The translations under genes were made by a program, and so were the position numbers. From Flavobacteriaceae bacterium (GTDB lineage: Bacteria > Bacteroidota > Bacteroidia > Flavobacteriales > Flavobacteriaceae): DNA of 32,000 nucleotides. The notes under the pieces were generated by a model. It was not told the DNA's origin, did no database searches, and saw only the letters and a list, made by a program, of their open reading frames with translations. This document shows positions 1-18,740 of this stretch, in pieces; the first letter of the stretch is position 1, and each line of letters opens with the position of its first letter. The DNA lies in NCBI GenBank assembly GCA_965224465.1, contig OZ245049.1:660001-692000 (forward strand), written 5' to 3'.

Positions 1-2135
1 GTAAATAAAAAATTCTGTTCATAGCTACGGGATACTAAAATAAGCCCTGTATTTATGACTCCTGCCTTATCAATAGCTGTTTTAGCCATTGTTTGTAATT
101 GAACATCGTTATATAAAGTATTAGTACCGGTTTTAAGAAAAATAACCAATACCTTATTCCCTGTATGATACTGTAATAACCGTAGTTTATCTTCGTATAC
201 CTGAAGTTTAGATGCTTCTAATAGTGAATTATTTCCTATAAAACCAAAATGTTTAATCTCTCTATTTGGCGGGTATTCCGTTGCACTGTCATTTATTTCA
301 CTATATAACAAGGCAAACTTCTCATTAACGGCATTTTGATGTGTTTCTAATATGGAGTCATAGTATGTAAATTGTTTGCATTTGTTCCCTTTAGGTTTTT
401 CTTTACAGTTTACAGCTATCGTTTTAGTTATAATTTTTGAAGTAGAATCAATTTTCTTTCCTTTATGTTTTTTTGCCTCTTTCCATGTTGTTTGGTATAA
501 TTTATTATTACATGGAGCTATATAGTGAAACCAATATACCTTTTTACTTTCATCAGATAAATCCACCAATTTAATCGGTAATTTTTCACCTCCAAAAACA
601 TAATCATTTCCATTTGCTACATATTCTTTTCCTTTAAAATTAATCCCCCTTACCGCACCTTGCGGGATGTTAGTAGCATTGGGAACAGAACTTATAGAAG
701 AATACGTAATAGAATTATTAACAAATGTAAAAGGCTGCCAATTAGCAGTTAAAAATACACGCTTTGATAATTCCCCTTCACTATCCCCATCAAAAACCCC
801 AATCCTCAATTTCGGATTGTGTATGGCTTTCCAATGTACATAAGGTAAATGCTCTCCTTTGTTATAATCTAGTAACCAATTGGTACTTCCTGTAGCATAT
901 TTATAACTATGAGAAGAAAACGGGTGTTTTAGCTGGAAGGCACCGTGGGCGAGTTCGTGTGCTACGGTTATCCCCCCAGCCCCCGAAGGGGGAGAATTTG
1001 CGGTAAAAATATAACCGAATTGTCTGCCTAATGGCATGAGTCCTTTTTCTCCTGCGGTGCTGGGCTGTTTGTCTGTTAAGATTAAATAATAAGCTTCAGG
1101 GTTAAAGTTACCATGCTCTTTTAATGCCTTATTTATACTACGCTGTTGCTCTGTGTATTGCGCTGCAAAGCCACTTTCTCCACTTTTTATAGTGCCGTCT
1201 GGTGTTAAACTGTTTAGGGTCGCTGTAAAATCGTTAATTACAGAAATATTTAGGCTAACTGCTGCTTGTTGGTAAATAGCTTTTAGTTTTTTTGTAATGG
1301 CACTTGTATTCGCTTTTGAAGTATTTACCAATACTACGACCACTTCCTTTATGGCAATTTGGTATTGCATAAAAGCCCCTGCTATTTGGTATTTATCGCC
1401 TTGTTTTACTAAGGCTTGGGTTTCTATATCGGCATCGCTTAGCGTTCCTTTTAATTTCAACGTATAGGAAGTACTAGTACTATCTACTTTTTTCAGTCCT
1501 ACACCATCTTTGGTTTTAAAAATAATGTCTTGAGGTTTTATACTATCGTTGGTAATTTTAAAATTGGCAACAATAAATTCTACCGTCCCTTTAGCTACCG
1601 CTTTGTAAGGCATGTAATAAGCTGACCCTAACTTTTTGTACAAGTCCTTGGTTTGTGGCTGGCTTGGGCTGTAGGCGTCGAATCCAGTAGGCAGTGTTGC
1701 AGTAGGCAGTTGGGTGAACGTTACGGTGACACCTTGTGCGGTGATGTTGGTGGCTTCTCCTTTGCTGTTTACGCCTGTGGTATTTTCCACAGTGGTAGTA
1801 CCGCCTTCGGCTTGTGGACCTAATTCGGTTACATTTCCTTGTTCGTCTACATGGTATTTTTTTGGTAGTACTGGTGGTTTTGCTTTAGGGTCTCCGCTGT
1901 CGGTTATTATATAGTCCTCGCCTCCAGATAATTCTACAATAGGTGCACCGCCTTTTCCTACTAATAATATATCTCCGTTGCTAGGGTCTACTAGGATTTC
2001 TGCTATTTGGAAGTTTACCTGTTTCACTGCATACGTTCCTTGCTGTTTTTGGATAGGGTGCTGCTGTGCTACTGCTATTTGAAAAAAGCAGGAACATAGG
2101 AATAGTAGGATTGTATGTAGGTTTTTATGTGGCAA
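1..2135 (-). CDS. Giant secreted polymorphic-toxin paralog 1; only the N-terminal ~711 codons are present, the 3' part runs off the left window edge
   Basis: Absent from the ORF track because it is open to the window edge. Nt 1-2128 are near-identical to 12248-14390 (paralog 3) and 771-2205 to 6171-7605 (paralog 2). It has the same TTG start context (caa at 2133-2135), the same signal peptide, and the HELAH codons at 945-959. Confidence 0.8.
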   Translation of the reverse strand, partial: MPHKNLHTILLFLCSCFFQIAVAQQHPIQKQQGTYAVKQVNFQIAEILVDPSNGDILLVGKGGAPIVELSGGEDYIITDSGDPKAKPPVLPKKYHVDEQGNVTELGPQAEGGTTTVENTTGVNSKGEATNITAQGVTVTFTQLPTATLPTGFDAYSPSQPQTKDLYKKLGSAYYMPYKAVAKGTVEFIVANFKITNDSIKPQDIIFKTKDGVGLKKVDSTSTSYTLKLKGTLSDADIETQALVKQGDKYQIAGAFMQYQIAIKEVVVVLVNTSKANTSAITKKLKAIYQQAAVSLNISVINDFTATLNSLTPDGTIKSGESGFAAQYTEQQRSINKALKEHGNFNPEAYYLILTDKQPSTAGEKGLMPLGRQFGYIFTANSPPSGAGGITVAHELAHGAFQLKHPFSSHSYKYATGSTNWLLDYNKGEHLPYVHWKAIHNPKLRIGVFDGDSEGELSKRVFLTANWQPFTFVNNSITYSSISSVPNATNIPQGAVRGINFKGKEYVANGNDYVFGGEKLPIKLVDLSDESKKVYWFHYIAPCNNKLYQTTWKEAKKHKGKKIDSTSKIITKTIAVNCKEKPKGNKCKQFTYYDSILETHQNAVNEKFALLYSEINDSATEYPPNREIKHFGFIGNNSLLEASKLQVYEDKLRLLQYHTGNKVLVIFLKTGTNTLYNDVQLQTMAKTAIDKAGVINTGLILVSRSYEQNFLF

Positions 2136-2179
2136 TATTTAGTTGTTTATCATTTTTTTTTGTTCTATTTGCATCGCTG

Positions 2180-2347
2180 CTAAGTCGGGAGACTTTGCGG
2201 AGCGGGGGTACTAGAGGTAACTTTACTATTAGCTACTGTTTTCTCCAAAGTAATTGTTTTATTTTTAAGGGTTTCAACAGTATTAAAACCAACAAACAGC
2301 AGTAAATTAAAGACTGCAACAACCAATATATAACCACTTTTTAGCAT
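2180..2347 (-). CDS. Possible 55-aa single-pass membrane peptide (MLKSGYILVVAVFNLLLFVGFNTVETLKNK...), below the ORF-track size cut-off
   Basis: Hand-translated. Its ATG (2345-2347) overlaps the stop of the upstream immunity gene in a TAATG arrangement. It has one hydrophobic helix. No equivalent ORF follows the orphan immunity gene at 7677, so it may be spurious. Confidence 0.25.
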   Translation of the reverse strand: MLKSGYILVVAVFNLLLFVGFNTVETLKNKTITLEKTVANSKVTSSTPAPQSLPT

Positions 2348-3357
2348 TAAACTATTTTGTTATTTTCTTCTTTTTCGAAAATGTGGAGAGTATTACTGTC
2401 ATCCAATAAATATAGCTTTCCTTTATGATACTCTATAGATTGTATTCTAACAAAAGTTTCTGATGGAAAATCTTCTAATAGTTCCAACTCCTGGTTTTCC
2501 GTATTAAAAAAACCAAACTTTACTTTTTCTCCTATTTGTCCTACAAACCATAGTTTGTTTTCGGAATATAAGTTTTTGTGAATTATAAAATCTTCCTGAA
2601 ATAAATCCGACACCTCTTTTTCTAAAACAACCTCTCCGTTTATAGGATTAAACACTTGGTATAATTTATTACTGCACCCATAAAGTAAATTTTCAAAACG
2701 ATTAAAGCAATGAGCTATTATAAACTTATCATTAATATTAACTTCAAAATACTCTTTCCAAAGAACTTCTCCTGAATCTTTATTTATCCCAACTAAAAAT
2801 TGATTGTCTTTTTCATTATAAGCTTCAATAAATAACACATCATCTATTACTTTTGGAGATAAATAGATAGTATAACCATCAGGTAATTGGTAGTTCCAGA
2901 GTCTTTTCCCGTTTAATGAATTTCTTAGATAAAATTTAGTTTTATCAAACCTTTCACTACAGAAAATAAGGCCTTTTATTGGAGTAATAGAATCAGTACC
3001 AGTATATGTCCATAATAGATTATAATTAAAATCAAATAAAGAATATTTTTTTTCCTTACGAGATAGTCTTTTCCTCCCAAATAAAACATTTTCTGAAACT
3101 ATTTTAAGTCCATCAAGCCCTTCGATACAAAATTTCTCAATTAGCTTATCATTAATAACTTTAAATAACTTTGAATTATCAAAAAAATATAAATCATTAT
3201 TTAAAGAAGAAAATTTCAACAGAGATAAATATTTCTTAAAACATATACCATTAATATAAGTTTTATCACCTTCTGCCAATGCATATAAAATATTTCCTGA
3301 AATATTTTTTAACCATGCACTACTTTGTCCCTTTATTTGTATATGTTTTCTTATCAT
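2347..3357 (-). CDS. Putative immunity protein for toxin paralog 2 (336 aa, possibly beta-propeller / PQQ-BamB-like repeats)
   Basis: The start overlaps the toxin stop (TAATG at 3355-3359). Repeated G-x-x-LW strand motifs (GKRLWNYQLP, GEVLWKEYF). Same size as the 339-aa ORF at 7677-8696 and the same C-terminal TLHIFEKEENN. The immunity role is inferred from position only. Confidence 0.6.
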   Translation of the reverse strand: MIRKHIQIKGQSSAWLKNISGNILYALAEGDKTYINGICFKKYLSLLKFSSLNNDLYFFDNSKLFKVINDKLIEKFCIEGLDGLKIVSENVLFGRKRLSRKEKKYSLFDFNYNLLWTYTGTDSITPIKGLIFCSERFDKTKFYLRNSLNGKRLWNYQLPDGYTIYLSPKVIDDVLFIEAYNEKDNQFLVGINKDSGEVLWKEYFEVNINDKFIIAHCFNRFENLLYGCSNKLYQVFNPINGEVVLEKEVSDLFQEDFIIHKNLYSENKLWFVGQIGEKVKFGFFNTENQELELLEDFPSETFVRIQSIEYHKGKLYLLDDSNTLHIFEKEENNKIV

Positions 3358-6300
3358 TATTGTTTTATAAGTTTAAATATATTTTCGAATTGACTTTCGA
3401 TTAAATCTTTTAATTCATCTGCGGTTTCAACTTGGAATTTATCAAATAACCTTTGATTTAAAGGTAAACCGTCAATTGCTTTTAGCATGTTTTCTTTAAA
3501 ATTCGGAGGATTTTTAGTACCGTTAAATATCCATTTTATATCGTCTAAGGATTGTGCATTGTTTAAGTCCTTTATAAATTGTTCGTTAAAATGACCTGGC
3601 GGCACCTTCTTAACTGATTTGAATTCGTAATATTTTACCCTTCGACTATTTGTAATATCAGCAACATCTACAAAGCGAGCTCCTCCAATATTTGTATAGT
3701 ATTCAAATTTGAGACTTTTACCTGAAAAATCATCTGAATGTTTACCTAAATAATAAACAATCCAATTGGCACCATCACTTTTAGCCTTTCCTTGTTTTAA
3801 ATCGCTTAAAACTTTATAAAAATCTTCTAGAATAATGTTTTTACCCGCTACATTTCTCCCGAAATCATCTAAATTCTTAACTACTGTTGAGTATGGTAAT
3901 CCATCTGCTCCTTTTAAAGACGTCAAAACTTCATCACTTAAACTAAGTGCTTTGAATGCAGGGCTTTTGCGTATGTCAGCAAAGGATTCCACAGCATCTG
4001 CTTTTTTAAACAATGGGTCGGAAACAGATTGTGGTTTCTCATATCGCTTTCTCAATAACTGCCAACTCTCTGCCAATTCTCCTCTTCGTGCAGCGTTTTC
4101 TCCTGTGCTTACAAATAATTTGCTTAAGCTGTTGGAAGTGTTAATGTCGGTTTTTAGGAGTGTTTTCTCTGCATCTGTTAATATAGTACTTGGAATCTCA
4201 TCAATCCAAGAGGGAATCTTAGATACCACCGTTGCGAGTTCATCCAATTGGCTTTTTATAAGTTGGGGGTTCGTATTGTTTTTTACATCGTTTAGGTCTA
4301 GCTTATTTATAAGTTTACGGTCTCCACTATGAATAACCGATGTAAGATGGAAATCTTCTGGATTTATTTCTGACAACCTTACCCTTTCTAGCGAAAAACC
4401 ATTAGTATTGTTCGCTTTCCTTGCTACGATACCATATAAATCATCAATCTTTCTCCCTGCTTTTAGACCTCCTTTTATATAGGCAGCACCAAAAAAAGGT
4501 ACAGCAGCTGACGCAGTATAAATAGTAAAATTTGTAGTATCGCTTCTTAGCCCAGCATATATTGCTCCAATAGGATCCGTTACAGTATCTGCTCCGGGCC
4601 ACATTCCTACAACGTCTAAAGTTCCATACATTACATCATCGAATAGAAATATTCCTTGAAAATCATAGAATTGCTCATCGGTTAACTCAGGGCTTAAATC
4701 AAGTGCAATTTCTACACCACTCCACCAAGTCCATTCTTCAACTGTTTCTTTCCATAGTCTAAATGTGTAGTTACCTTGTGTCTTTATCTCTATTGGACTA
4801 TCTGATTTTCCATTAGAACCATCAAAGTCCATATATACCTCTCTGAATTTTGCAATTTTATTTATATCCAACTTTTCCCAAAGAGACATATTAGCCAAGC
4901 CTCCTTGTTCTATTTCTACGGTTAATCCTTGCTCAATAAAGGAATTTACGCCTTTAATACATTCCGTGTATGTATTATTACTGTCTAAATAACAATTTCC
5001 ATCATGTTCACCACAGTGTGATAAATTTTCATTACGAGCTGAAAGACATGCTCTTTGCTTGTTGTAGGCTTCTTTAAATGATTTTGACCGATAAAAGGAA
5101 AGTGTCTTTATAAAAGTGGCTCCTCTAACATCATCTTTTGATTGATATAAATAATTCTGCAAGATTCCATCAGCATATTGATAGTATTTATTTACAATTA
5201 CTGGCTTTTTAATTGAAGCATATATACTCAATAAATACTCCAAACTATTACCATTTTTTCTAATAATGTTTTCATCAAACAATCCTTCATTGCTTTGGAT
5301 ATAAGCTGTTTCAGAGCACACAGTTGTAGACACTCCAAATAAGGATTCAAAAGGAGAACCATTAATAAGTACAAATACTATTTTTTTACTTTTATCAACA
5401 CTTTCCAATGCTTTATTCGCTATTTCACGCAACTGTGTGCTAGTGTATATGTTGTTGTTTTCGGTTCTTAATAAGCCTAGCACAAAATATGTATCTGTAT
5501 AATGGCTCAGTAAATGAAACTTATCCTCTAGTACATCCCATTGTTTTTCATTATCTGGTAACAACGAATTAGCTCCATCACTCAGAGAAAAAATATGCTT
5601 AAATTGCCCTTTAGTTCTATGCTTCGAAACCTTTGATTGATTAATTTCTGCTATTGCTTTTAATAATGATGTTTTTATTTCCCTTACAATACTATTATCA
5701 ACAATCAAATCATGGTTCATTTGTCTGCACCTAACATTTCCTTCCTCTTGTTTATTACCTGGTCTTATATCACATGTTCTAGCCGCTTCATACACTTGAC
5801 CTGTCGCCTGATTATTTACATGTACATTGTTTTCCGCATCAATATAAACTAACCTTGGTTCTTGATTAGTCTCTTCAAATTTATCAAACTTTATTTTTTG
5901 TCCTTTTTCATCTTTAACAAATGCTCCATTTCTATATTTCCAATAATATTTTTTATTATTACCTCTTATGGGATAAAATATATCACCCGACGAAAGTTCT
6001 CTTATTATAGAAATTCTTCCTATAGCTTCAGGGGTTTTAGAACCGACAAATGCAACAGGAACGTACCCTGCTCCTAAAATTATTGCATTCCCATATAGAT
6101 CTAAATAAGCATAATTTCTATTTTGGTACTCAACAGGAACACATACATAATCAAGTTTATCAAAGCTATATTCCCCTTCACCATCCCCATCAAAAATCCC
6201 AATCCTCAATTTCGGATTGTGTATGGCTTTCCAATGTACATAAGGTAAATGCTCTCCATTGTTATAATCTAGTAACCAATTGGTACTTCCTGTAGCATAT

Positions 6301-7535
6301 TTATAACTATGCGTAGAGAATGGATGTTTTAGTTGGAAGGCACCGTGGGCGAGTTCGTGTGCTACGGTTATCCCCCCAGCCCCAGAAGGGGGAGAATTTG
6401 CGGTAAAAATATAACCGAATTGTCTGCCTAATGGCATGAGTCCTTTTTCTCCTGCGGTGCTGGGCTGTTTGTCTGTTAAGATTAAATAATAAGCTTCAGG
6501 GTTAAAGTTACCATGCTCTTTTAATGCCTTATTTATACTACGCTGTTGCTCTGTGTATTGCGCTGCAAAGCCACTTTTTCCACTTTTTATAGTGCCGTCT
6601 GGTGTTAGACTGTTTAGGGTCGCTGTAAAATCGTTAATTACAGAAATATTTAGGCTAACTGCTGCTTGTTGGTAAATAGCTTTTAGTTTTTTTGTAATGG
6701 CACTTGTATTCGCATTTGAAGTATTTACCAATACTACGACCACTTCCTTTATGGCAATTTGGTATTGCATAAAAGCCCCTGCTATTTGGTATTTATCGCC
6801 TTGTTTTACTAAGGCTTGGGTTTCTATATCGGCATCGCTTAGCGTTCCTTTTAATTTTAAGGTGTAAGAAGTACTAGTACTATCTACTTTTTTCAGTCCT
6901 ACACCATCTTTGGTTTTAAAAATAATGTCTTGAGGTTTTATACTATCGTTGGTAATTTTAAAATTGGCAACAATAAATTCTACCGTCCCTTTAGCTACCG
7001 CTTTGTAGGGCATGTAATAATTTGCTCCCAACTTTTTGTACAAGTCCTTGGTTTGTGGCTGGCTTGGGCTGTAGGCGTCGAATCCAGTGGGCAGTGTTGC
7101 AGTAGGCAGTTGGGTGAACGTTACGGTGACACCTTGTGCGGTGATGTTGATGGCTTCTCCTTTGCTGTTTACGCCTGTGGTGTTTTCCACAGTGGTAGTA
7201 CCGCCTTCGGCTTGTGGACCTAATTCGGTTACATTTCCTTGTTCGTCTACATGGTGTTTTTTTGGTAGTACTGGTGGTTTTGCTTTGGAATCTCCGCTAT
7301 CGGTTATTATATAGTCCTCTCCTCCAGATAATTCTACAATAGGTGCACCGCCTTTTCCTACTAATAATATATCTCCGTTGCTTGGGTCTACTAGGATTTC
7401 TGCTATTTGGAAGTTCACCTGTTTTACTACATACGTTCCCTGCTGTTTTTGGATAGGGTTCTGCTGTGCTACTGCTATTTGAAAAAAGCAGGAACATAGG
7501 AATAGTAGGATTGTATGTAGGTTTTTATGTGGCAA
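3357..7535 (-). CDS. Giant secreted polymorphic toxin paralog 2 (1392 aa): signal peptide, zincin HEXXH domain, divergent middle region, nuclease-like C-terminal tip
   Basis: TTG start. Signal peptide MPHKNLHTILLFLCSCFFQIAVA/QQ. HELAH at residues 393-397 (nt 6345-6359). Residues 1-455 are near-identical to paralogs 1 and 3 and then diverge after GIFDGDGEGE. The ELAESW junction lies at nt 4062-4079. The last ~240 aa contain FVDVAD...YYEFKS, a D...ExK pattern. Confidence 0.8.
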   Translation of the reverse strand: MPHKNLHTILLFLCSCFFQIAVAQQNPIQKQQGTYVVKQVNFQIAEILVDPSNGDILLVGKGGAPIVELSGGEDYIITDSGDSKAKPPVLPKKHHVDEQGNVTELGPQAEGGTTTVENTTGVNSKGEAINITAQGVTVTFTQLPTATLPTGFDAYSPSQPQTKDLYKKLGANYYMPYKAVAKGTVEFIVANFKITNDSIKPQDIIFKTKDGVGLKKVDSTSTSYTLKLKGTLSDADIETQALVKQGDKYQIAGAFMQYQIAIKEVVVVLVNTSNANTSAITKKLKAIYQQAAVSLNISVINDFTATLNSLTPDGTIKSGKSGFAAQYTEQQRSINKALKEHGNFNPEAYYLILTDKQPSTAGEKGLMPLGRQFGYIFTANSPPSGAGGITVAHELAHGAFQLKHPFSTHSYKYATGSTNWLLDYNNGEHLPYVHWKAIHNPKLRIGIFDGDGEGEYSFDKLDYVCVPVEYQNRNYAYLDLYGNAIILGAGYVPVAFVGSKTPEAIGRISIIRELSSGDIFYPIRGNNKKYYWKYRNGAFVKDEKGQKIKFDKFEETNQEPRLVYIDAENNVHVNNQATGQVYEAARTCDIRPGNKQEEGNVRCRQMNHDLIVDNSIVREIKTSLLKAIAEINQSKVSKHRTKGQFKHIFSLSDGANSLLPDNEKQWDVLEDKFHLLSHYTDTYFVLGLLRTENNNIYTSTQLREIANKALESVDKSKKIVFVLINGSPFESLFGVSTTVCSETAYIQSNEGLFDENIIRKNGNSLEYLLSIYASIKKPVIVNKYYQYADGILQNYLYQSKDDVRGATFIKTLSFYRSKSFKEAYNKQRACLSARNENLSHCGEHDGNCYLDSNNTYTECIKGVNSFIEQGLTVEIEQGGLANMSLWEKLDINKIAKFREVYMDFDGSNGKSDSPIEIKTQGNYTFRLWKETVEEWTWWSGVEIALDLSPELTDEQFYDFQGIFLFDDVMYGTLDVVGMWPGADTVTDPIGAIYAGLRSDTTNFTIYTASAAVPFFGAAYIKGGLKAGRKIDDLYGIVARKANNTNGFSLERVRLSEINPEDFHLTSVIHSGDRKLINKLDLNDVKNNTNPQLIKSQLDELATVVSKIPSWIDEIPSTILTDAEKTLLKTDINTSNSLSKLFVSTGENAARRGELAESWQLLRKRYEKPQSVSDPLFKKADAVESFADIRKSPAFKALSLSDEVLTSLKGADGLPYSTVVKNLDDFGRNVAGKNIILEDFYKVLSDLKQGKAKSDGANWIVYYLGKHSDDFSGKSLKFEYYTNIGGARFVDVADITNSRRVKYYEFKSVKKVPPGHFNEQFIKDLNNAQSLDDIKWIFNGTKNPPNFKENMLKAIDGLPLNQRLFDKFQVETADELKDLIESQFENIFKLIKQ

Positions 7536-7605
7536 TATTTATTTGTTTATCATTTTTTTTTGTTCTATTTGCATCGCCGCTAAGTCGGGAGACTTTGCGG
7601 AGTGG
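6171..7605. repeat. Conserved toxin N-terminal block plus ~70 nt upstream, paralog 2 copy
   Basis: Near-identical to 771-2205. The coding part is near-identical to 13019-14390, which carries a 15-nt indel. Identity ends abruptly at the GEGE codons (6171). Confidence 0.9.
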
Positions 7606-7676
7606 GTTTTTATAATTCCTAATAATTCATCCGTTAAGCCTAGTTTATCTTTTACTGCTTTTGGTAACTTTCTAGT

Positions 7677-8696
7677 TTAAACTACAATGTTATTTTCTTC
7701 TTTTTCAAAAATATGGAGAGTGTTATCTTGGGTCTGAATATAAATGCGATTAGCATTCACATGAATACTCCCAATACCTCCATTTTCTGGTATAAATTCA
7801 TGTTTAAAAACTAGGTTTTTAGAATTCATATCTAAAACCCCAACTTTTGATTTATTATCTCCTAGTGTTTGTGTAAAATAGAAACAATCGTTTTTTACTG
7901 CACATCTATGGTCATGAATAGAATCAAAACCATTTTCTTTAATAAGGATATTAACATCCCATTCTTCTATTTCATTAGTAATAACATTGACTTTACATAA
8001 GATATTTTCAAATTTTGTGGTATAGATAAAATTGTTGTCTTTAAAAATACTAAATCCAAATCCATTATGCTTATATAGAACCTTTCCCGAATGCGCATCT
8101 AAACAAAATAAAGCGCCTTGCTCGTCTCCTGATACTGTAAAATAAATTTTATCAGATAATTCCAATATTTTACTACTTAAATAGGCTTTTTCTGAGTTAA
8201 TTAAATCAGAAAAATCGTGTTTCCAAGTTACACCCCTTGATTCAAAGCTATTAAACACTATTAAACCAGTATTATATCTGGAATCACCCGCTTGTATAAC
8301 ACCATAATTAGTAAATAATTTTTGTCCTCCATTTTGAAGGATAGGGATCTCTATAATTTTATCTGATTTAAAGATAATTTTACCTCTTTTTTTATAGGAT
8401 GCATAAGCAGTGTATTTAACGGAAAACACATAATAAAGATTTCCTTCAATTATAGCCTCTTGTCCGTCTTTGAAAGAATAGAAAAACGTTTTTTTATCTT
8501 GAAAATAATATATTCCATTCTTGTATCGACCAATTTGATTGGTTCTTTTAGATAACTGAATACTTGTCAGTAGATTATGTTGATTGTTATTTTCATATAC
8601 TAAAAGTTTGTTTTCAGTATTTTTAATACAAATTATATCTTTATCCATTAAAAGAATACCCGTATTTATCTTAATTGAGATATTAAATTTTATCAT
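7677..8696 (-). CDS. Putative immunity protein of the orphan toxin cassette (339 aa, same family as 2347-3357)
   Basis: Overlaps the end of the orphan toxin-tip reading frame by 4 nt. Shares size and the C-terminal TLHIFEKEENN with the 336-aa ORF. The 3'-terminal ~50 nt are highly similar to 2347-2400. Confidence 0.6.
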   Translation of the reverse strand: MIKFNISIKINTGILLMDKDIICIKNTENKLLVYENNNQHNLLTSIQLSKRTNQIGRYKNGIYYFQDKKTFFYSFKDGQEAIIEGNLYYVFSVKYTAYASYKKRGKIIFKSDKIIEIPILQNGGQKLFTNYGVIQAGDSRYNTGLIVFNSFESRGVTWKHDFSDLINSEKAYLSSKILELSDKIYFTVSGDEQGALFCLDAHSGKVLYKHNGFGFSIFKDNNFIYTTKFENILCKVNVITNEIEEWDVNILIKENGFDSIHDHRCAVKNDCFYFTQTLGDNKSKVGVLDMNSKNLVFKHEFIPENGGIGSIHVNANRIYIQTQDNTLHIFEKEENNIVV

Positions 8697-9522
8697 AAAA
8701 AAATTAATTTAAAATTAGAATCAACGAAGTTATCGATATGAATATTAGTTATTATATCATCAAGTTCATCAAAATTAAAAAAGTTTCTGAACTTTTTAGA
8801 TTTAATTTCGTCAACCCCATCAATTATACTTTGAATTGAACCCTTATTTTCTTTCAACCAGGTCTTTAACTTTTCCGCAGTCATTTCTGTTTTATCCATA
8901 CGATATTGAATTTCATTTAAATTATCCGCGTTAAACAAATCTCGTTCAATAAATTGCTCTTTTATAGTTTTACTAGATATACTTCCTGGTCCACTTTTGT
9001 ATTCTGTTTTTAAATTTCCGGGTGTACAATTAACACAAAACAAATCAATACTCGAATCATTATTAGTAGCTCTTGCATTGGGTACAGAATGCTCAAACCT
9101 AAGCTTTTTCCCTGCAAACTCTTTCCCGTTTGCATTTAAATCCCTTAAAACCCAATGTGCTCCTTGCTTTTGATTGTTGGTACCATTTTTAAAGGTACTT
9201 ACTATTTTATCAAATTATCTATGGTTGTGTTTGGGTTCTGATGTACGAATTGACCAAACTTATTTAAATCGTTTAACACATCGGCATAAGATGCAGAAAG
9301 TGTTCCCGTTTTATATCCATTTAAAGACGCTAAAACTTCATCACTCAAACCAAGGGGTTCGAATGCAGGGCTTTTTCGTATGTCTGCCAAGGCCTGTATA
9401 GCATCCGTATTTCTTGTTAAGCCTATTGCTGGGTTATTCCCTCCTGTTCTTTTATTTATGTGTAATAACTGCCAACTCTCTGCCAATTCAAGTTTCTGAG
9501 CGGGTTCAATAATTATAAAACG
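8693..9522 (-). pseudogene. Orphan (N-terminally truncated, frameshifted) toxin C-terminal cassette, homologous to the tip of paralog 2
   Basis: The frame is open from the stop of the upstream gene: ...PAQKLELAESWQLLH...ADIRKSPAFEPLGLSDEVLASL... (ORF 9202-9486). It continues in the -1 frame as FDKIVSTFKNGTNNQKQGAHWV...SSIDLFCVNC...KTEYKSG (to 8693). This aligns with paralog 2 residues ELAESWQLLRK...ADIRKSPAFKALSLSDEVLTSL...EDFYKVLSDLKQGKAKSDGANWIV...YYEFKS. The frameshift is at the T3 run (plus-strand aaa, 9212-9214). There is no start codon, signal peptide or N-terminal region. Confidence 0.75.
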
Positions 9523-10251
9523 TTATAAAACTGAACCATCTATTTGTAAAACACTACCATCAGAAATATTATATTTACTAGTCATAACCAATAATTTCTT
9601 CTTTAGTTTGGTGTAATACGGATGCCATTCAGTTAATCCTTCTTCTTCATCAAACATCAATGAATCTACCCATTTCAATCTTCTTTCAAACTCTGGATCA
9701 TTACATAGTTTTGAGATAATCAATAATCTAAAAAGCCATGCTGCCCCACCTGCTATAATTTCATGCCCATATTTCCCATCTACTTCTAATTGATTTACCT
9801 TTGCTAAAATATTCGGTAAAAAACTGTAATGTTCTACAAATTTAAACCCCGACTTTTCTAAATAATTTACTAGCCAATCAGCAAATTCTTCAACCTCCTC
9901 CTTCTTTTTAAAGAAATTGTACATGTATTTATTTTTGAATAAAGTCTTAAAACTAAAATCTTTTACAGAGTTTAAAAAAAGTTCATCTTTAGGCTTATAA
10001 CTAATTAGCGTATTTGTTGGTATCCCAATGTTCAGAATAACATCTTCTACTTCAAAAATTGAAGGCATTAAAGAACTAGCTCCAATAGTTCCATTTTCAT
10101 TAAAATTAAACACACAAAAATAAACCTTGTCATCAAACCTTTTGAGATAGCTTAGACCTGGTCTAGAATTTAATAATTTATAACTTCTTTCTAATAACAA
10201 GAAATTTAACCTATCAAATATAATTTTTTTTCTTACTTTTTTTTCAATCAT
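9523..10251 (-). CDS. Putative immunity protein for toxin paralog 3 (242 aa, no recognisable motif)
   Basis: The ATG directly abuts the stop of the 1381-aa toxin ORF, on the same strand. Role inferred from position only. Confidence 0.55.
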   Translation of the reverse strand: MIEKKVRKKIIFDRLNFLLLERSYKLLNSRPGLSYLKRFDDKVYFCVFNFNENGTIGASSLMPSIFEVEDVILNIGIPTNTLISYKPKDELFLNSVKDFSFKTLFKNKYMYNFFKKKEEVEEFADWLVNYLEKSGFKFVEHYSFLPNILAKVNQLEVDGKYGHEIIAGGAAWLFRLLIISKLCNDPEFERRLKWVDSLMFDEEEGLTEWHPYYTKLKKKLLVMTSKYNISDGSVLQIDGSVL

Positions 10252-13200
10252 TTAATTTACTTTTTTAATTAGTTCAATTGTTAAATTATCTATATCGTTT
10301 GCTGAGCCATGATCTGCAATTTTAAATATTTTTTGGTTAGATACCTTAAGAATATCATTTTCATTAAGATCAAATTCTAATTTAGTGTACTTCAATTTCA
10401 TCTCAGTTTGTCCATTAATAATAGCTCCAAAACCTTCTTTTTGTCGAATAGTAAATCCTGTTTTTTGACTCAATTTATTTTCAATGATAATAACATCTAT
10501 AATTTCATTTGTAGATTTACTTCTTTTTATTAGTACAATATCTGCTTTCATAAATCCATTTTTAGTTATTAATGGTATTTCCGTCAAAACTTGATAATCT
10601 TCTAGTCTCTTAATTCCAATACTATTTGTTAACTTAGCAATAAATGAAGGATTACTTTTATCGTTTATAAGTGTAACAATATTTTCTCCCAATTTCCTTC
10701 CTTCTGCAGAATAATGTTGAAATCGTTCAATATTCTTACTGCGTTTAATCCAATTTGACAGTTTAGTATCTTCATTTCGTCTTAATACTTCACCAATGAT
10801 ATCAAACTCATCAATACTAAGGTTCGCCCCTTTATGTGAGGTGATTCCTTTAACATATACTATATTTTCTTCTTTATTTAAAAGATTTAAAAACTCTTCA
10901 TCACAATCATCAATAAACTTAGATAAAGTAGATTTACCATCTACATCTGTTAATCTTTTTATCAAATTTTGATTACTCTTATTTAATTTACTGAATTTCT
11001 CAATTTTAATAGGGTCGGTTTTGACAAAAGATTTTGGATTAAATTTATGTAATACTTTCCAACTCTCTGCCAATTCAAGTTTCTGAGCAGGACTTTTACC
11101 ATCAAACAAGATACGTAAACCGCTATTTATATCGGTTTTTAAGGCCTTTTTTAATTCGTCCGTAAAAGAGATAGGTAAATCGGATAAAAAGTTGAGTAAG
11201 TTGTCTATTTTCTCCAATGGTAAACCATCAACTCTAGCCCATTGCTTAGCCTCATCCAAATTAGCACTCATGGAGGATGAAAAATGTTTTTCACCTTTGC
11301 TTAGATCTACAATATAATTAGGATCATGTATCGAAAAATGAGTTATAATCTTGCTATTATCTGTATGTGATATAATTTTAAATCGTTTGGCAGATTTTAA
11401 TGCAAATACGCCGTATTGTGTTACTCCAACCGCTACAACACTAACACCATACATACTAGCCTCTACGTAATCTCGTTCTTTGATTGCATAGATTATACCT
11501 ATAGCGTCGGGTATAAAATCTAAGCCTGTTGGGGCGAGCATTAAGGAAGCTACATCAATTTTATCGTACACCAATTGTTTTTCATCAACAACTTTATACA
11601 GATGTTCATTTGTTAATGCGAAATACTGCCCATCGGCAAATTTTACATTTGCCATATAATTTGATAAAAAATCCGATTTGTATTTATCAAAATGGAATTT
11701 TGCATAACTAATTCCTATATGTTCTAAACCTGCCTTTTTTACACTTGCGATATAAGGTTCTCTTAAATTTACAGGGTTATTATCTACAGGTAGATAATAA
11801 TTCTCAGACTTATTTACAAAAGCTAATCTATCATTTTCAATTGCTTTTTTAAGTTCCTGTTCATACCCCTCTTTCCAAATCCTGTACTTTTCAATATATT
11901 CGGGTCGTAATATAATACCGTATCCATCACCAGTTTTAACGCTTTTAAAAGGATTTGGTCTCTTTGCTTCTATTCTTTTTACTGCATCAAAAGAGGGACT
12001 TTTTAATAATACCAAATGATTGATAAATGGATAGCCCTTTACATGTGTATTATTTGCTTTATAGATAGATTTTATTTCTCCCGATGCATTAAAAATTACA
12101 AATTGTAATTGTACAGGCTTTGGAATTTCTTTGTAGAAATTTAAAAAATCACTATTAAAACTCTCTTTCTCTTTAAAATTAAACGATACCGATTCAAGTT
12201 CACCATTTCCATAACCACTACTATTATAACAATCAGTTGTATAATCGGTAAATAAAAAATTCTGTTCATAGCTACGGGATACTAAAATAAGCCCTGTATT
12301 TATGACTCCTTCCTTATCAATAGCTGTTTTAGCCATTGTTTGTAATTGAACATCGTTATATAAAGTATTAGTACCGGTTTTAAGAAAAATAACCAATACC
12401 TTATTTCCTGTATGATACTGTAATAACCGTAGTTTATCTTCGTATACCTGAAGTTTAGATGCTTCTAATAGTGAATTATTTCCTATAAAACCAAAATGTT
12501 TAATCTCTCTATTTGGCGGGTATTCCGTTGCACTGTCATTTATTTCACTATATAACAAGGCAAACTTCTCATTAACGGCATTTTGATGTGTTTCTAATAT
12601 GGAGTCATAGTATGTAAATTGTTTGCATTTGTTCCCTTTAGGTTTTTCTTTACAGTTTACAGCTATCGTTTTAGTTATAATTTTTGAAGTAGAATCAATT
12701 TTCTTTCCTTTATGTTTTTTTGCCTCTTTCCATGTTGTTTGGTATAATTTATTATTACATGGAGCTATATAGTGAAACCAATATACCTTTTTACTTTCAT
12801 CAGATAAATCCACCAATTTAATCGGTAATTTCTCACCTCCAAAAACATAATCATTTCCATTTGCTACATATTCTTTTCCTTTAAAATTAATCCCCCTTAC
12901 CGCACCTTGCGGGATGTTAGTAGCATTGGGAACAGAACTTATAGAAGAATACGTAATAGAATCATTAACAAATGTAAAAGGCTGCCAATTAGCAGTTAAA
13001 AATACACGCTTTGATAATTCCCCTTCACCATCCCCATCAAAAATCCCAATCCTCAATTTCGGATTGTGTATGGCTTTCCAATGTACATAGGGTAAATGCT
13101 CTCCTTTGTTATAATCTAGTAACCAATTGGTACTTCCTGTAGCATATTTATAACTATGAGAAGAAAACGGGTGTTTTAGCTGGAATGCACCGTGGGCGAG

Positions 13201-14397
13201 TTCGTGTGCTACGGTTATCCCCCCAGCCCCAGAAGGGGGAGAATTTGCGGTAAAAATATAACCGAATTGTCTGCCTAGAGGCATTAAACCACTTTCTGTG
13301 TTGCTATTTCCGCTGGCATCCACAGGCTGTTTGTCTGTTAAGATTAAATAATAAGCTTCAGGGTTAAAGTTACCATGCTCTTTTAATGCCTTATTTATAC
13401 TACGCTGTTGCTCTGTGTATTGCGCTGCAAAGCCACTTTCTCCACTTTTTATAGTGCCGTCTGGTGTTAAACTGTTTAGGGTCGCTGTAAAATCGTTAAT
13501 TACAGAAATATTTAGGCTAACTGCTGCTTGTTGGTAAATAGCTTTTAGTTTTTTTGTAATGGCACTTGTATTCGCTTTTGAAGTATTTACCAATACTACG
13601 ACCACTTCCTTTATGGCAATTTGGTATTGCATAAAAGCCCCTGCTATTTGGTATTTATCGCCTTGTTTTACTAAGGCTTGGGTTTCTATATCGGCATCGC
13701 TTAGCGTTCCTTTTAATTTCAACGTATAGGAAGTACTAGTACTATCTACTTTTTTCAGTCCTACACCATCTTTGGTTTTAAAAATAATGTCTTGAGGTTT
13801 TATACTATCGTTGGTAATTTTAAAATTGGCAACAATAAATTCTACCGTCCCTTTAGCTACCGCTTTGTAAGGCATGTAATAAGCTGACCCTAACTTTTTG
13901 TACAAGTCCTTGGTTTGTGGCTGGCTTGGGCTGTAGGCGTCGAATCCAGTAGGCAGTGTTGCAGTAGGCAGTTGGGTGAACGTTACGGTGACACCTTGTG
14001 CGGTGATGTTGGTGGCTTCTCCTTTGCTGTTTACGCCTGTGGTATTTTCCACAGTGGTAGTACCGCCTTCGGCTTGTGGACCTAATTCGGTTACATTTCC
14101 TTGTTCGTCTACATGGTATTTTTTTGGTAGTACTGGTGGTTTTGCTTTAGGGTCTCCGCTGTCGGTTATTATATAGTCCTCGCCTCCAGATAATTCTACA
14201 ATAGGTGCACCGCCTTTTCCTACTAATAATATATCTCCGTTGCTAGGGTCTACTAGGATTTCTGCTATTTGGAAGTTTACCTGTTTCACTGCATACGTTC
14301 CTTGCTGTTTTTGGATAGGGTGCTGCTGTGCTACTGCTATTTGAAAAAAGCAGCTGCATAGGAATAATAGGATTGTATGTAGGTTTTTAGGATTCAA
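10252..14397 (-). CDS. Giant secreted polymorphic toxin paralog 3 (1381 aa): signal peptide, HEXXH domain, divergent middle region, different nuclease-like C-terminal tip
   Basis: TTG start. Signal peptide MNPKNLHTILLFLCSCFFQIAVA/QQ. HELAH codons at 13192-13206. ELAESW at 11059-11076. The tip contains ADIVLIKRSKSTNEIIDVIIIENKLS, a D...ENK pattern. Confidence 0.8.
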   Translation of the reverse strand: MNPKNLHTILLFLCSCFFQIAVAQQHPIQKQQGTYAVKQVNFQIAEILVDPSNGDILLVGKGGAPIVELSGGEDYIITDSGDPKAKPPVLPKKYHVDEQGNVTELGPQAEGGTTTVENTTGVNSKGEATNITAQGVTVTFTQLPTATLPTGFDAYSPSQPQTKDLYKKLGSAYYMPYKAVAKGTVEFIVANFKITNDSIKPQDIIFKTKDGVGLKKVDSTSTSYTLKLKGTLSDADIETQALVKQGDKYQIAGAFMQYQIAIKEVVVVLVNTSKANTSAITKKLKAIYQQAAVSLNISVINDFTATLNSLTPDGTIKSGESGFAAQYTEQQRSINKALKEHGNFNPEAYYLILTDKQPVDASGNSNTESGLMPLGRQFGYIFTANSPPSGAGGITVAHELAHGAFQLKHPFSSHSYKYATGSTNWLLDYNKGEHLPYVHWKAIHNPKLRIGIFDGDGEGELSKRVFLTANWQPFTFVNDSITYSSISSVPNATNIPQGAVRGINFKGKEYVANGNDYVFGGEKLPIKLVDLSDESKKVYWFHYIAPCNNKLYQTTWKEAKKHKGKKIDSTSKIITKTIAVNCKEKPKGNKCKQFTYYDSILETHQNAVNEKFALLYSEINDSATEYPPNREIKHFGFIGNNSLLEASKLQVYEDKLRLLQYHTGNKVLVIFLKTGTNTLYNDVQLQTMAKTAIDKEGVINTGLILVSRSYEQNFLFTDYTTDCYNSSGYGNGELESVSFNFKEKESFNSDFLNFYKEIPKPVQLQFVIFNASGEIKSIYKANNTHVKGYPFINHLVLLKSPSFDAVKRIEAKRPNPFKSVKTGDGYGIILRPEYIEKYRIWKEGYEQELKKAIENDRLAFVNKSENYYLPVDNNPVNLREPYIASVKKAGLEHIGISYAKFHFDKYKSDFLSNYMANVKFADGQYFALTNEHLYKVVDEKQLVYDKIDVASLMLAPTGLDFIPDAIGIIYAIKERDYVEASMYGVSVVAVGVTQYGVFALKSAKRFKIISHTDNSKIITHFSIHDPNYIVDLSKGEKHFSSSMSANLDEAKQWARVDGLPLEKIDNLLNFLSDLPISFTDELKKALKTDINSGLRILFDGKSPAQKLELAESWKVLHKFNPKSFVKTDPIKIEKFSKLNKSNQNLIKRLTDVDGKSTLSKFIDDCDEEFLNLLNKEENIVYVKGITSHKGANLSIDEFDIIGEVLRRNEDTKLSNWIKRSKNIERFQHYSAEGRKLGENIVTLINDKSNPSFIAKLTNSIGIKRLEDYQVLTEIPLITKNGFMKADIVLIKRSKSTNEIIDVIIIENKLSQKTGFTIRQKEGFGAIINGQTEMKLKYTKLEFDLNENDILKVSNQKIFKIADHGSANDIDNLTIELIKKVN
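12248..14390. repeat. Paralog 3 segment repeated at 1-2128 (N-terminal block plus ~250 codons of the middle region)
   Basis: Read by eye: position 1 aligns with 12248, with scattered SNPs and one replaced patch (1021-1085 versus 13261-13340). Confidence 0.9.
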
Positions 14398-14415
14398 TTA
14401 TTATTTATTTTGTTT

Positions 14416-15057
14416 TTATAGTTGCCGTGCAGCTGCGGTAGTTTCTACTTCTTCAAAAACACAGCCTTTGAAATTATTGGCCTCCAGAGCTCTCCTTAAA
14501 TCTTCCCTTACAAATATTATTGTTGATTTTTCTTTCGTTCTAAAAATAGCAGGAAAGCCTTCTTTTGGTTCTTTTAAAACTAATTTTTTGATTCCTCTTA
14601 CTCCCTTTGAACTATATTTTGGAACTCTATAAACAGAATTTTCAAAATCAAAGTAACTATCCAGTTTGGGTAATCTTAATGCTAAATAATCTTCATTTGT
14701 TGGGATAGAATTATTTAACTCTAAATTATTCAAGAACCTATCTTTCAGACAAGTATCATCAAACATTATAACAGGAACTACATTGAATTTGAATTCGATG
14801 AATTTTTCAAAAACTTCCTTGACTTTTTTACTAACAATAAATATTCCTGAATTTGTAAAAGGAAAGTCAAACTTTGGTATATGAAAAAAATTAGCATCAA
14901 AATACAAATTATTCGGAAGTAATTCTACGTCATATAAGTTAGGGTTTGAAAAATAATAACATACTTTATCACTACCTTCAAAAGGCAAAAGTATAGCATC
15001 ATAATCAGGATCTGTTTTTCTGTTAGTATTTAATATTATTTTAAATTTTTTTGTCAT
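14416..15057 (-). CDS. Hypothetical protein, possibly an Imm11/Imm43 (DUF1629)-like immunity protein
   Basis: 213-aa ORF lying 18 nt upstream of toxin paralog 3. The C-terminal pattern FPAIFRTKEKSTIIFVREDLRRALEANNFKGCVFEEVE resembles, from memory, the ...FR....v.e.....l.....G..F..v ending of DUF1629-type immunity proteins. Unverified. Confidence 0.4.
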   Translation of the reverse strand: MTKKFKIILNTNRKTDPDYDAILLPFEGSDKVCYYFSNPNLYDVELLPNNLYFDANFFHIPKFDFPFTNSGIFIVSKKVKEVFEKFIEFKFNVVPVIMFDDTCLKDRFLNNLELNNSIPTNEDYLALRLPKLDSYFDFENSVYRVPKYSSKGVRGIKKLVLKEPKEGFPAIFRTKEKSTIIFVREDLRRALEANNFKGCVFEEVETTAAARQL

Positions 15058-15160: not shown

Positions 15161-15325
15161 TCACGCAGACTTGAAATCCGTGCGTCCCCTCATACACAAC
15201 AACTAACCCATAAATAACATACAAATATCTAATGCATTTTTTAAGATTTGCATGAGCAGCCTTATGTGATGTACTTTGTGGGCACGGATTTCAACCTTAA
15301 ATCCGCATGTCTAGACACAAAATAA

Positions 15326-15358
15326 ACCGCAAGACCTTTGTTTACAAAGGCTTGCGGT
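15326..15358 (+). terminator. Strong hairpin inside the IS left end, upstream of the transposase start (possible read-through blocker)
   Basis: accgcaag(a)cctttg-ttta-caaaggcttgcggt: a 14-bp stem with one bulge and a 4-nt loop, followed by a partly T-rich stretch. Confidence 0.35.
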
Positions 15359-15402
15359 TCTCAGTATTTTCACCTAAATTGGTGTTACGCAAAAGACTGA
15401 TT

Positions 15403-16698
15403 ATGAAGGTACTAAATTCAACTCACATTAACCCATTTGGTGGAATAAATTTTGTTTTTGAGGAATTAAACAAGCTTAAAATAGATGAGATTTTATCCGA
15501 TAATTTACCTCCATTACCTACACAATCGAAATATGATTGGAAGGATCTTTTATACTCTTTTTGGTCTATCTACTTTTGCGGAGGAAACTGTATTGAAGAC
15601 TTATCTATCAACCTAGGCAGTCACCTGAGAAACAACCCAATGGTTAAGGTACCTAGTCCTGATAGAGTTTTAGATAGATTTAAGGAACTAGCTATTCCTG
15701 AAGTTCTTTTTTCAGTTCCAAGAGGTAAAAGTCTTCATCAATTTAGTTTACATACAGAATTGAATGAACTTAATTTAAAAATTTTAAAAAAAATAGGATT
15801 ATCAAAAACAGAGAACTACACTTTAGACTACGACAATACTATTATTTTCACAAATAAAGCAGATAGCAGAAGAAGCTATAAAAAAGATTTTGGCTACTGT
15901 CCAGGTGTAGATATCATTGGGAATAACATTGTTTATGTTGAGAACAGAAATGGAAATAGCGATGCAAAAACACTACAATTTCAATCACTCACTAGAATGT
16001 TTTCTCTATTAGAAGAACAAAATATTAATATAGAATCATTTAGGGCAGACGGTGCTTCTTTTCAATACGATATTGTTAAACTAGTTGAAAAAAAGACTAA
16101 AACTTTTTTCCTTAGAGCGGTTATGAGTGGTGCTTTAGCTCAAAGGATTTCCCTTATTGATACTTGGGAAAAAGTAACATTAGGAGGAGAAGAAGCTTAC
16201 CGAGGAGAAATAAAATATACGCCTTTTATTAGAACAGCAAAAAGGAGAAAAAACAACAACAATTTAAAAGAATACCGCTTAGTTGTTACAAAAGTAAAAA
16301 GAGAAGATAATCAAATAAATGCTTTTACTAATGAAGCCTACAACTACTCAGCAGTACTAACAAATGATTATGAGAAAACGGCAACAGAAGTAGTTTTTTT
16401 CTACAATCAAAGAGGAGCTATAGAAAAAGAATTTGATGTTCTTAAAAATGATTTTGGATGGGACAATTTACCTTTTTCAAAACTAGAGCAAAACACAGTT
16501 TTCTTACTGTTTACTGCTATTTTCCGTAATTTATATCATCATATAATTTGTTCCTTCTCAAAAATATATAAAAATTTAAATCCTTCTTTTAGAATTAAAA
16601 AATTCATTTTTAGATTTATTACAACACCTGCAAAATGGATACAAAATGCTAGACAAAATAAACTAAGAGTTTATGGAAAGCTCCTTTACAACACGTAA
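15403..16698 (+). CDS. IS1380-family DDE transposase
   Basis: The ORF track opens at 15307, but that ATG lies inside the terminal IR, so MKVLNSTHINPFGG at 15403 is the likelier start. Blocks match ISEcp1-type transposases as I recall them: TLDYDNT..., FRADGASF..., FYNQRGAIEKEFDVLKNDFGW. Confidence 0.8.
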   Translation: MKVLNSTHINPFGGINFVFEELNKLKIDEILSDNLPPLPTQSKYDWKDLLYSFWSIYFCGGNCIEDLSINLGSHLRNNPMVKVPSPDRVLDRFKELAIPEVLFSVPRGKSLHQFSLHTELNELNLKILKKIGLSKTENYTLDYDNTIIFTNKADSRRSYKKDFGYCPGVDIIGNNIVYVENRNGNSDAKTLQFQSLTRMFSLLEEQNINIESFRADGASFQYDIVKLVEKKTKTFFLRAVMSGALAQRISLIDTWEKVTLGGEEAYRGEIKYTPFIRTAKRRKNNNNLKEYRLVVTKVKREDNQINAFTNEAYNYSAVLTNDYEKTATEVVFFYNQRGAIEKEFDVLKNDFGWDNLPFSKLEQNTVFLLFTAIFRNLYHHIICSFSKIYKNLNPSFRIKKFIFRFITTPAKWIQNARQNKLRVYGKLLYNT

Positions 16699-18730: not shown

Positions 18731-18740
18731 GGGTGAACTT
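18731..18740. repeat. Right 10-bp target-site duplication (gggtgaactt) of the ISAs1-family IS
   Basis: Identical to 17492-17501 and directly abuts the right IR. Confidence 0.9.

Follow-up and report, generated by a model that had tools for sequence, protein, structure and literature searches.

Polymorphic toxins with a TANFOR domain were published in 2020. According to that report, they are almost exclusive to the Bacteroidetes, about 87% of them carry Sec signals, and many different toxins are found at their C-termini (PMC7073777; Jana, Salomon and Bosis 2020). One of these tips, BaCT, is a new PD-(D/E)xK DNase. It is toxic and Mg-dependent, and mutation of its ExK motif abolishes the toxicity. 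The cognate immunity protein BaCTic is encoded downstream of BaCT and comprises 358 amino acids (aa) in F. hydatis (PMC7073777). A link to the type IX secretion system (T9SS) was speculated from the enrichment of SprB/C-terminal domain (CTD), PKD and Fn3 genes nearby (PMC7073777; Jana, Salomon and Bosis 2020). No follow-up literature on TANFOR toxins was found among the papers searched. We analyzed a stretch of 32,000 nucleotides (nt), in the following called the window, from a Flavobacteriaceae bacterium (GCA_965224465.1, contig OZ245049.1, positions 660,001-692,000). Positions 1-15057 of the window, read on the minus strand, most probably are an array of headless TANFOR-class toxin/immunity cassettes, with the three large genes G1, G2 and G3 (Table 1).

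From the predicted proteins, each toxin would be composed of five parts: a Sec signal, a constant block of about 435 aa, a disordered GDGEGE linker, a variable middle region of about 650 aa, and a helical pre-toxin module ending in ELAESW together with a tip of about 230 aa. A homologous beta-rich/immunoglobulin (Ig)-like body with a HEXXH domain, a Sec signal, hypervariable tips and immunity genes are shared with the TANFOR toxins. The same applies to the occurrence of several paralogs per genome, to small toxin genes downstream of the large ones and to the restriction to Bacteroidota. In contrast, the window proteins are without the head of about 480 aa (TIGR02542 and Fn3), which defines the class and was proposed as its delivery domain (PMC7073777). 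The SprB/T9SS-CTD or PKD neighbours are missing from the window as well.

A constant part combined with a swappable pair of tip and immunity gene is also known from contact-dependent inhibition (CDI) and Rhs systems. Further likenesses are a short junction (VENN in CDI, ELAESW here) and the presence, behind the main gene, of orphan tips that lack a promoter and are accompanied by immunity genes. However, the window toxins have no two-partner secretion (TPS) domain, CdiB, haemagglutinin repeats or YD repeats. They show a second exchange point far upstream, after GDGEGE, at which about 930 aa would be moved at once, and the "displaced" copies retain their own signal peptide. MafB, Microscilla-N and APD1/2 (Zhang et al. 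2012) resemble the array by a signal peptide, a lineage-restricted constant N-terminus, polymorphic C-termini and paralog arrays, but they are unrelated in sequence and contain no peptidase motif.

Homology to TANFOR-class toxins

An exhaustive HMMER search with a profile of the constant block yielded 2364 cluster representatives (clusters of 50% identity), 1093 of them with an expectation value (E) <=1e-30. A word-index search had given only five matches and missed the query protein itself; the rarity of the family suggested by it was overturned by the profile search. The family statistics given here rest on 72 representatives, taken from the top-150 list. In most representatives the region corresponding to aa ~30-460 of the window proteins starts at aa ~410-440 of proteins with 1200-3500 aa. 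The canonical proteins typically open with a signal peptide and "AQxYPVQV...". Of 27 representatives, 20 contain Fn3 and eight match TIGR02542 TANFOR at the N-terminus. Among their C-termini are toxin domains known to Pfam (EndoU, TNT, lipase-like); one protein (P0005) carries Peptidase_M15_4. Judged by this sequence similarity, G1-G3 are homologs of the TANFOR-class toxins.

An earlier note, made from the sequence without database searches, had interpreted the array as a polymorphic toxin/immunity system. This interpretation is supported by the varied C-termini of the homologs, the BaCT tips, the pairing of the G3 tip with the downstream gene I3, and the orphan and stray immunity genes described below. 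In contrast, the proposal of an undescribed Bacteroidota toxin-delivery architecture is unsupported in that form, since the class was described in 2020 (PMC7073777). The note had seen no Rhs/YD, haemagglutinin, LXG, PAAR or T9SS C-terminal signature, and scans of G1-G3 against Pfam and NCBIfam (E<=0.1) were likewise without a match to these, to TPS or to MafB-N. The scans of whole proteins, middle regions and tips remained empty, on sub-segments even at E<=10. Sequence searches against the PDB gave no match with single proteins, and with the family profile Fn3 was the only match.

Arrangement and duplication of the genes

G1, G2, G3 and the coupled downstream open reading frames (ORFs) are co-oriented. 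For the three large ORFs the coordinates given before hold, but the strand had to be corrected to minus. Translational coupling of each complete gene to a small ORF was confirmed: the stop of G2 and the start of I2 are joined by a TAATG overlap, and the ATG of I3 abuts the G3 stop. The start codon of the array toxins is TTG, and the constant block begins about 12 nt upstream of it.

Table 1 Features of the toxin array and its upstream region (window coordinates)
Feature	Position (nt)	Strand	Remarks
G1	1-2135	-	5' 711 codons of a putative headless TANFOR-class toxin; continues beyond left window end; duplicate of G3
G2	3357-7535	-	1392-aa putative toxin
G2 parts			Sec leader aa 1-23; constant block aa 24-~458; variable middle aa ~459-1150; ELAESW aa 1153-1158; tip aa ~1160-1392
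G3	10252-14397	-	1381-aa putative toxin; leader and constant block as in G2; different middle region
G3 C-terminal part			ELAESW aa 1108-1113; second tip type with D...ExK (D1286, E1306-N-K1308)
Constant block	G2 6170-7535; G1 770-2135; G3 13017-14397	-	Beta-rich/Ig-like domains, then metzincin-like domain
HELAHGAFQLKH	G2 6324-6359; G1 924-959; G3 13171-13206	-	Putative zinc-binding/catalytic motif
GDGEGE linker	G2 6171-6188; G1 771-788; G3 13018-13035	-	Constant region ends here
ELAESW junction GAATTGGCAGAGAGTTGG	G2 4062-4079; orphan 9472-9489; G3 11059-11076	-	18 nt; exact match in DNA alignment
YYEFK of G2 tip	3618-3632	-	ExK = E1304, K1306; upstream acidic residues E1278, D1293
IIIENK of G3 tip	10474-10491	-	Putative ExK catalytic motif
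I2	2347-3357	-	336-aa putative immunity protein for G2 tip; beta-propeller-like, BaCTic-like
Orphan-module immunity gene	7677-8696	-	339 aa; I2 paralog
Orphan BaCT-family tip	8699-9504	-	No N-terminal part; frameshift near 9205-9214
I3	9523-10251	-	242-aa putative immunity protein for G3 (and G1) tip
Stray Imm11/Imm43-family immunity gene	14416-15057	-	213 aa; 18 nt upstream of G3
IS1380-family transposase	15307-16698	+	Directly upstream of toxin array
Second transposase-like ORF	17589-18716	+	Inserted into group II intron reverse-transcriptase gene
Reverse-transcriptase fragments of broken group II intron	17026-17370, 18703-19524	-	Flank second transposase-like ORF

The near identity of the first ~455 codons noticed before was verified with blastn. 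Within the constant block the nucleotide identity is 94.8% for G2/G3, 97.1% for G1/G2 and 98.2% for G1/G3, and it extends to codon ~455. The ratio of nonsynonymous to synonymous substitution rates in this block is 0.24-0.33 among the three paralogs; the constant block is under purifying selection. Its GC content (0.41) is higher than that of the tips (0.26-0.32) and the immunity ORFs (0.26-0.28), as had been stated; the middle regions have 0.31-0.33. After codon ~458 G2 and G3 are weakly collinear with about 25% identity over parts, converge again at ELAESW and end in unrelated tips, which agrees with the distant similarity reported for them. A random stretch of 930 codons would stay open in this AT-rich DNA with P ~1e-35; intact variable ORFs of this length are thus very unlikely to exist by chance.

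G1 is 98% identical to G3 over 711 aa. A protein of the same 5.24-Mb contig (P0223, 1372 aa) is the full-length G1 product, with a 100% match to the 711 aa within the window. Because it is 99% identical to G3 along the whole length including the tip, G1 and G3 are recent duplicates. The description as three toxins with swapped tips is therefore overstated: there are two full-length tip types and one orphan, and G1 is no third variant.

Tips, immunity genes and orphan module

The G2 tip shows 41% identity to that of P0112, a TANFOR-type protein from Flavobacterium, and 30% to that of P0115, a protein of 1867 aa from Flavobacterium sp. IR1, for which BaCT is listed at 1577-1867 in Supplemental Data 3 of PMC7073777. 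In the alignment of BaCT-type tips the E...D...ExK columns are invariant (E1278, D1293, E1304 and K1306 in G2). With tblastn, the orphan tip was aligned to the P0115 tip in two frames, 9498-9205 (frame -3, 38% identity) and 9214-8699 (frame -2, 54%), at a combined E of 8e-69. Since both are homologous to listed BaCT tips with the invariant E...D...ExK, G2 and the orphan carry tips of the BaCT family. The G2 tip probably is a DNase of the Mg-dependent PD-(D/E)xK type.

With BaCT/BaCTic (PMC7073777) the homologous G2 and orphan tips have the kept ExK in common and immunity ORFs of 336-339 aa (358 aa there) directly downstream. They differ in that the G2 tip has only about 30-41% identity to the characterised tips of the F. 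hydatis type and that the tip of G1/G3 belongs to another family. Weak beta-propeller signatures are present in the downstream proteins of both the G2 and the orphan tip; for I2 they are weak Pfam matches to PQQ_2/beta-propeller. In a metagenome locus with a relative of G2 (L002), an ORF of 332 aa at the equivalent position ends in LHIFTEEEN, compared with LHIFEKEEN in I2. By its position, its size and the common C-terminal motif, I2 is a putative relative of BaCTic (WP_035620349.1).

The orphan resumes right after the I3 stop at 9504 with AQKLELAESWQLL, at the AQKLELAESW junction, and the homology starts exactly there. Its end overlaps by ATGA with the ORF 7677-8696, which shows 27% identity (E 6e-10) to I2 and shares the C-terminus LHIFEKEENN. 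Hence, I2 is not unique in the window as the earlier note had assumed for the small coupled ORFs. That note had also overlooked this orphan module with its own immunity gene, and the Imm11/Imm43 gene 18 nt upstream of G3. The latter was identified by PF07791 (1.1e-10) and PF15570 (2.5e-5); no remnant of an Imm11-cognate toxin was found upstream of it in a search of the window. The frameshifted orphan tip with its immunity gene and the stray Imm11 gene are probably leftovers or reserves of earlier cassettes.

The tip of G3 was also considered as BaCT. This was rejected, as the profile-profile comparison with BaCT-type tips (hhalign) gave a probability of 0.3%. For the G3-type tip 55 homologs were found, mostly Flavobacteriia proteins of 170-440 aa with their own signal peptide and a conserved Trp junction SWKLL. 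D...E-N-K is invariant, and E, N and K are unchanged in 16 homologs. The G1/G3 tip probably is a nuclease likewise. In Galbibacter mesophilus a small toxin similar to the G3 tip (P0010) is encoded downstream of an Fn3 protein of 1923 aa and is directly followed by an ORF of 239 aa with 42% identity (E 2e-62) to I3. The adjacency of an I3 relative indicates that the G3-type toxin and its immunity candidate travel as a pair across genera.

Before both tip families a pre-toxin module of about 45 aa (LKxDxN…LF…ELAxxW) was observed, at aa ~1115-1158 in G2 and aa ~1075-1113 in G3. This module, for which no Pfam model exists, also occurs in small stand-alone Sec-signal toxins; it was noted in P0007, P0115 and P0009. 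For the middle region, neither a PT-TG-like nor a transmembrane segment was supported.

Leader and metzincin-like domain

The leader consists of K/H residues, a hydrophobic core of 17 residues and the AVA/QQ end seen before. In the hydropathy profile it forms the sole peak of transmembrane grade (1.77). The leaders of G1-G3 are thus predicted Sec signal peptides of the kind by which the TANFOR class is characterized. The subsequent part had been called a long Ser/Thr/Gly-rich region. With 6% S, 9% T and 9% G this N-terminal region is only mildly enriched, and the structure prediction shows it confidently as folded beta/Ig-like domains.

Two structure predictions cover the constant block, a model of aa 24-470 and a domain-only model of aa 262-462. 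The AlphaFold2 model of aa 24-470, based on an alignment of 30 sequences, reached a predicted local distance difference test score (pLDDT) of 86.7 and a predicted template modelling score of 0.82. It comprises small beta domains, an Ig-like sandwich and an alpha/beta domain with HELAH on a long helix. The GDGEGE linker is predicted to be disordered (pLDDT <50 from model residue 422), yet EGE is conserved in the alignments. In the domain-only model (pLDDT 87.6) HELAHGAFQLKH is located on helix 127-139. Foldseek against the PDB gave a single significant match for this model, the archaemetzincin AmzA (2x7m; E 3.9e-4, probability 1.0, TM-scores 0.50/0.55), and snapalysin lower in the list (probability 0.82). 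The whole multi-domain model of 447 residues gave low-scoring Ig-like noise only. The occurrence of the motif in all three genes, as reported before, was confirmed, and the HEXXH region has a zincin (metzincin-like) predicted fold.

H393, E394, H397, H404, D423 and W435 (G2 numbering) are invariant across 74 aligned family members, and the HEXXH motif is retained in 69 of the 72 representatives. The third His stands at +11 and the Gly is absent, so that the canonical HExxHxxGxxH spacing is not given. No match to a peptidase family was obtained in Pfam, and the domain is covered neither by Pfam nor by NCBIfam. With archaemetzincin (M54, 2x7m) and snapalysin (M7, 4hx3) it has in common the beta-sheet, HExxH on the active-site helix and a third His further along the chain. 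The TM-score of about 0.5, a sequence identity of 12-14%, the third His at +11 instead of +10 without Gly, and the embedding in a toxin of 1400 aa are different.

Releasing peptidases upstream of the toxic part are known from other polymorphic toxins (PVC-metallopeptidase/DUF4157, HINT, ZU5, caspase-like; PMC3482391), and the PVC-metallopeptidase/DUF4157 is a zincin, too. In contrast to HExxHxxQ...E, the motif of the window proteins is HExxHxxxxxxH, and no Pfam match to DUF4157 was obtained. Furthermore, the domain lies about 930 aa upstream of the C-terminus and not beside the tip; autoprocessing is putative.

Across the family, the identity to G2 falls from 0.43-0.56 before aa ~450 to 0.1-0.16 behind it. 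The metzincin-like domain sits exactly at this boundary between constant and variable part, where the conservation stops. Its position and invariance suggest that it takes part in processing or releasing the variable part, which would resemble the releasing peptidases of other polymorphic toxins (PMC3482391). That the domain cleaves this part or helps to deliver it is put forward tentatively; it may just as well be structural, bind the target or degrade the envelope. In PMC7073777 neither a peptidase nor a HEXXH domain of TANFOR toxins is mentioned. Both the headless architecture and the conserved metzincin-like domain go beyond the literature consulted.

Headless form and canonical loci

In the window genes the TANFOR-Fn3 head is missing and the constant block follows the signal peptide immediately with its first beta domain, whereas the same block starts at aa ~410-500 in canonical members. 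Besides the window, the headless form was observed in a few Tenacibaculum loci. A similar leader (KKNLHIISL...) is present in the headless proteins of Tenacibaculum lutimaris and Tenacibaculum sp. UWU-22. The short form of UWU-22 (P0074) corresponds to aa 499-1535 of a canonical protein of another Tenacibaculum strain (P0220) with 92% identity. Counted from the alignment, the constant blocks agree in about 83% of positions and the variable parts in about 99%. This difference indicates that long and short forms exchange the same cargo.

Related loci were found by a profile search of genome contigs; an earlier scan with a single protein had found no relatives. A canonical locus has the order SprB-repeat protein of about 1700 aa with a T9SS C-terminal domain, PKD lipoprotein of about 457 aa, TANFOR toxin, immunity genes and signal-peptide protein of about 815 aa. 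The Tenacibaculum short forms are located downstream of the canonical toxin inside such loci (L008/L009, 12 kb apart; L010). Neighbourhood genes with SprB, Por_Secre_tail, PKD or Fn3 were detected in at least 12 of 18 related genome loci.

Three further observations were made with these loci. The signal-peptide protein of about 800-815 aa (AQNLDIE(S/G)ITKSTK...), which ends canonical loci of Tenacibaculum and relatives (L003-L019; e.g. L006 14436-16838, L002 82-2517), belongs to no Pfam family and is unmentioned in the available part of the 2020 paper; it might be an outer-membrane component. In L010 (Tenacibaculum lutimaris, 5205-8483) a TANFOR-Fn3 protein of about 1074-1093 aa without the HEXXH block has a different C-terminus; small ORFs separate it from the headless gene further downstream. 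This arrangement suggests a third exchange point after the head. In L001/L018 (Tenacibaculum sp., metagenome-assembled genome, OZ251501.1) a canonical TANFOR gene is truncated within the constant block and has DDE transposases on both sides, representing a decayed copy of the family.

Proposed mechanism and alternative explanations

According to the model, the toxins would be exported by Sec to the periplasm and then displayed on the surface or released by another route. The tip would enter a neighbouring cell and degrade its DNA, while kin would be protected by the adjacent immunity protein. The BaCT DNase tip of G2 would be neutralised by the beta-propeller-like I2, and the tip of G1/G3 by I3. 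Recombination at two joints, one where the constant block ends and one at the 18-nt junction, appears to generate the diversity. The exact 18-mer at ELAESW occurs three times in the window (G2, orphan, G3), and the junction is presumed to be a recombination site for tip exchange. The alignments show two apparent nested exchange points: at the end of the constant block about 930 aa would be moved together with the immunity gene, and at ELAESW the tip of about 230 aa.

Several points weigh against this interpretation. G1-G3 contain neither the TANFOR domain (TIGR02542; NCBIfam, E<=0.1) nor Fn3, and tblastn detected none of the accessory genes of canonical loci (SprB/T9SS-CTD protein, PKD lipoprotein, ~815-aa protein) in the window, which ends inside G1. 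The metzincin fold match is moderate (TM-score ~0.5), and the third His stands one residue further than in HExxHxxGxxH. The consensus LMDY, which might be the Met-turn, reads LLDY in the window copies, with Leu for Met. For the G3 tip there is no experimentally characterised homolog. The start codon is TTG and G3 follows a region disrupted by an insertion sequence (IS), so that expression is presumed.

The headless genes could alternatively be displaced reserve cassettes and no weapons of their own, comparable to CDI/Rhs orphan modules but longer, whose constant block of 1.37 kb serves as homology arm for swapping the variable region and the immunity gene into a full-length TANFOR gene elsewhere in the genome. 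This explanation fits the Tenacibaculum loci L008/L009 and L010, where the short forms follow a canonical TANFOR gene, the variable part of P0074, ~99% identical to the canonical toxin of another strain compared with ~83% in the constant block, and a true orphan tip in the array. In addition, the three constant blocks of the window, with 95-98% identity, resemble the outcome of gene conversion. However, unlike classic orphans, they have a start codon, whose position they share with the Tenacibaculum short forms, and an intact Sec leader; the 4.1-kb ORFs are intact (P ~1e-35 for 930 random open codons) and the constant block is under purifying selection. As an account of its own we regard this as rather unlikely; yet the roles of reserve cassette and autonomous weapon are not mutually exclusive, and the reserve role fits most of the data. 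Decidedly unlikely is an independent, undescribed delivery architecture with the Sec leader and the zincin domain as the whole trafficking machinery. The lack of TANFOR, T9SS CTD, Rhs, LXG, PAAR and TPS domains in Pfam and NCBIfam scans, the absence of accessory genes from the window and the existence of small Sec-signal proteins with a G3-type tip would agree with it. But more than 1000 canonical toxins have a homolog of the constant block (E down to 0) behind their TANFOR-Fn3 part, and a short form is 92% identical to a canonical body. Due to both, the headless toxins are to be seen as a derivative of the known class and not as a separate one.

Secreted or surface metalloproteases or adhesins, i.e. 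degradative or virulence factors with unrelated downstream ORFs, could be suspected from the invariant HExxH...H with its metzincin-like predicted fold and from Ig-like and beta domains typical of surface proteins. This is highly improbable in view of C-termini that are hypervariable family-wide and include known toxin domains, tips homologous to BaCT, the conserved toxin-immunity pairing, and the orphan tip and stray Imm11 and Imm49 genes nearby. It is also conceivable, but unlikely, that the metzincin-like domain and not the TANFOR head is the functional core. Self-cleavage at GDGEGE would then free a cargo of about 930 aa, and the headless leader and block would be enough for deployment, with outer-membrane export by a route that is neither classical T9SS-CTD nor another named system. 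The conserved ~815-aa signal-peptide protein closing canonical loci would be an example of such a route.

Neighbouring elements

The IS1380-family transposase and the broken group II intron (Table 1) indicate that the upstream context of the array of headless toxin cassettes has been rearranged. Farther upstream the window contains a direct duplication of 3.5 kb (20929-24431/28498-32000; 99.97% identical), which continues past the window end. The duplicated module comprises two tyrosine recombinases (285 and 313 aa) and an ORF of 104 aa. A primase/Toprim protein of 846 aa is encoded at 24082-26622, and the start of its second copy at 31651-31950.

Furthermore, a second small polymorphic toxin pair was found on the minus strand (20530-21051/20213-20548 and 27910-28620/27134-27907). 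These Sec-signal proteins of 173 and 236 aa are identical in the first ~41 aa (MNSLFKIFLIVVLSVFSTLNLSANDTFFSIEKSSERLEELA) and differ in their C-termini. Each gene is followed by a small ORF, of which the one of 257 aa encodes an Imm49-family immunity protein (Pfam 1.7e-24). Each small toxin pair adjoins one copy of the duplicated recombinase module.

Implications

With more than 2,300 clusters matching the constant block, TANFOR toxins are widespread in the Bacteroidota, and the two nested exchange points would explain their diversification. Headless copies with a signal peptide and a body under purifying selection directly raise the question whether the TANFOR/Fn3 head is needed for export. 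The invariant metzincin-like domain at the boundary of constant and variable part is a candidate for a processing step. The locus itself would represent a toxin/immunity island in a marine flavobacterium.

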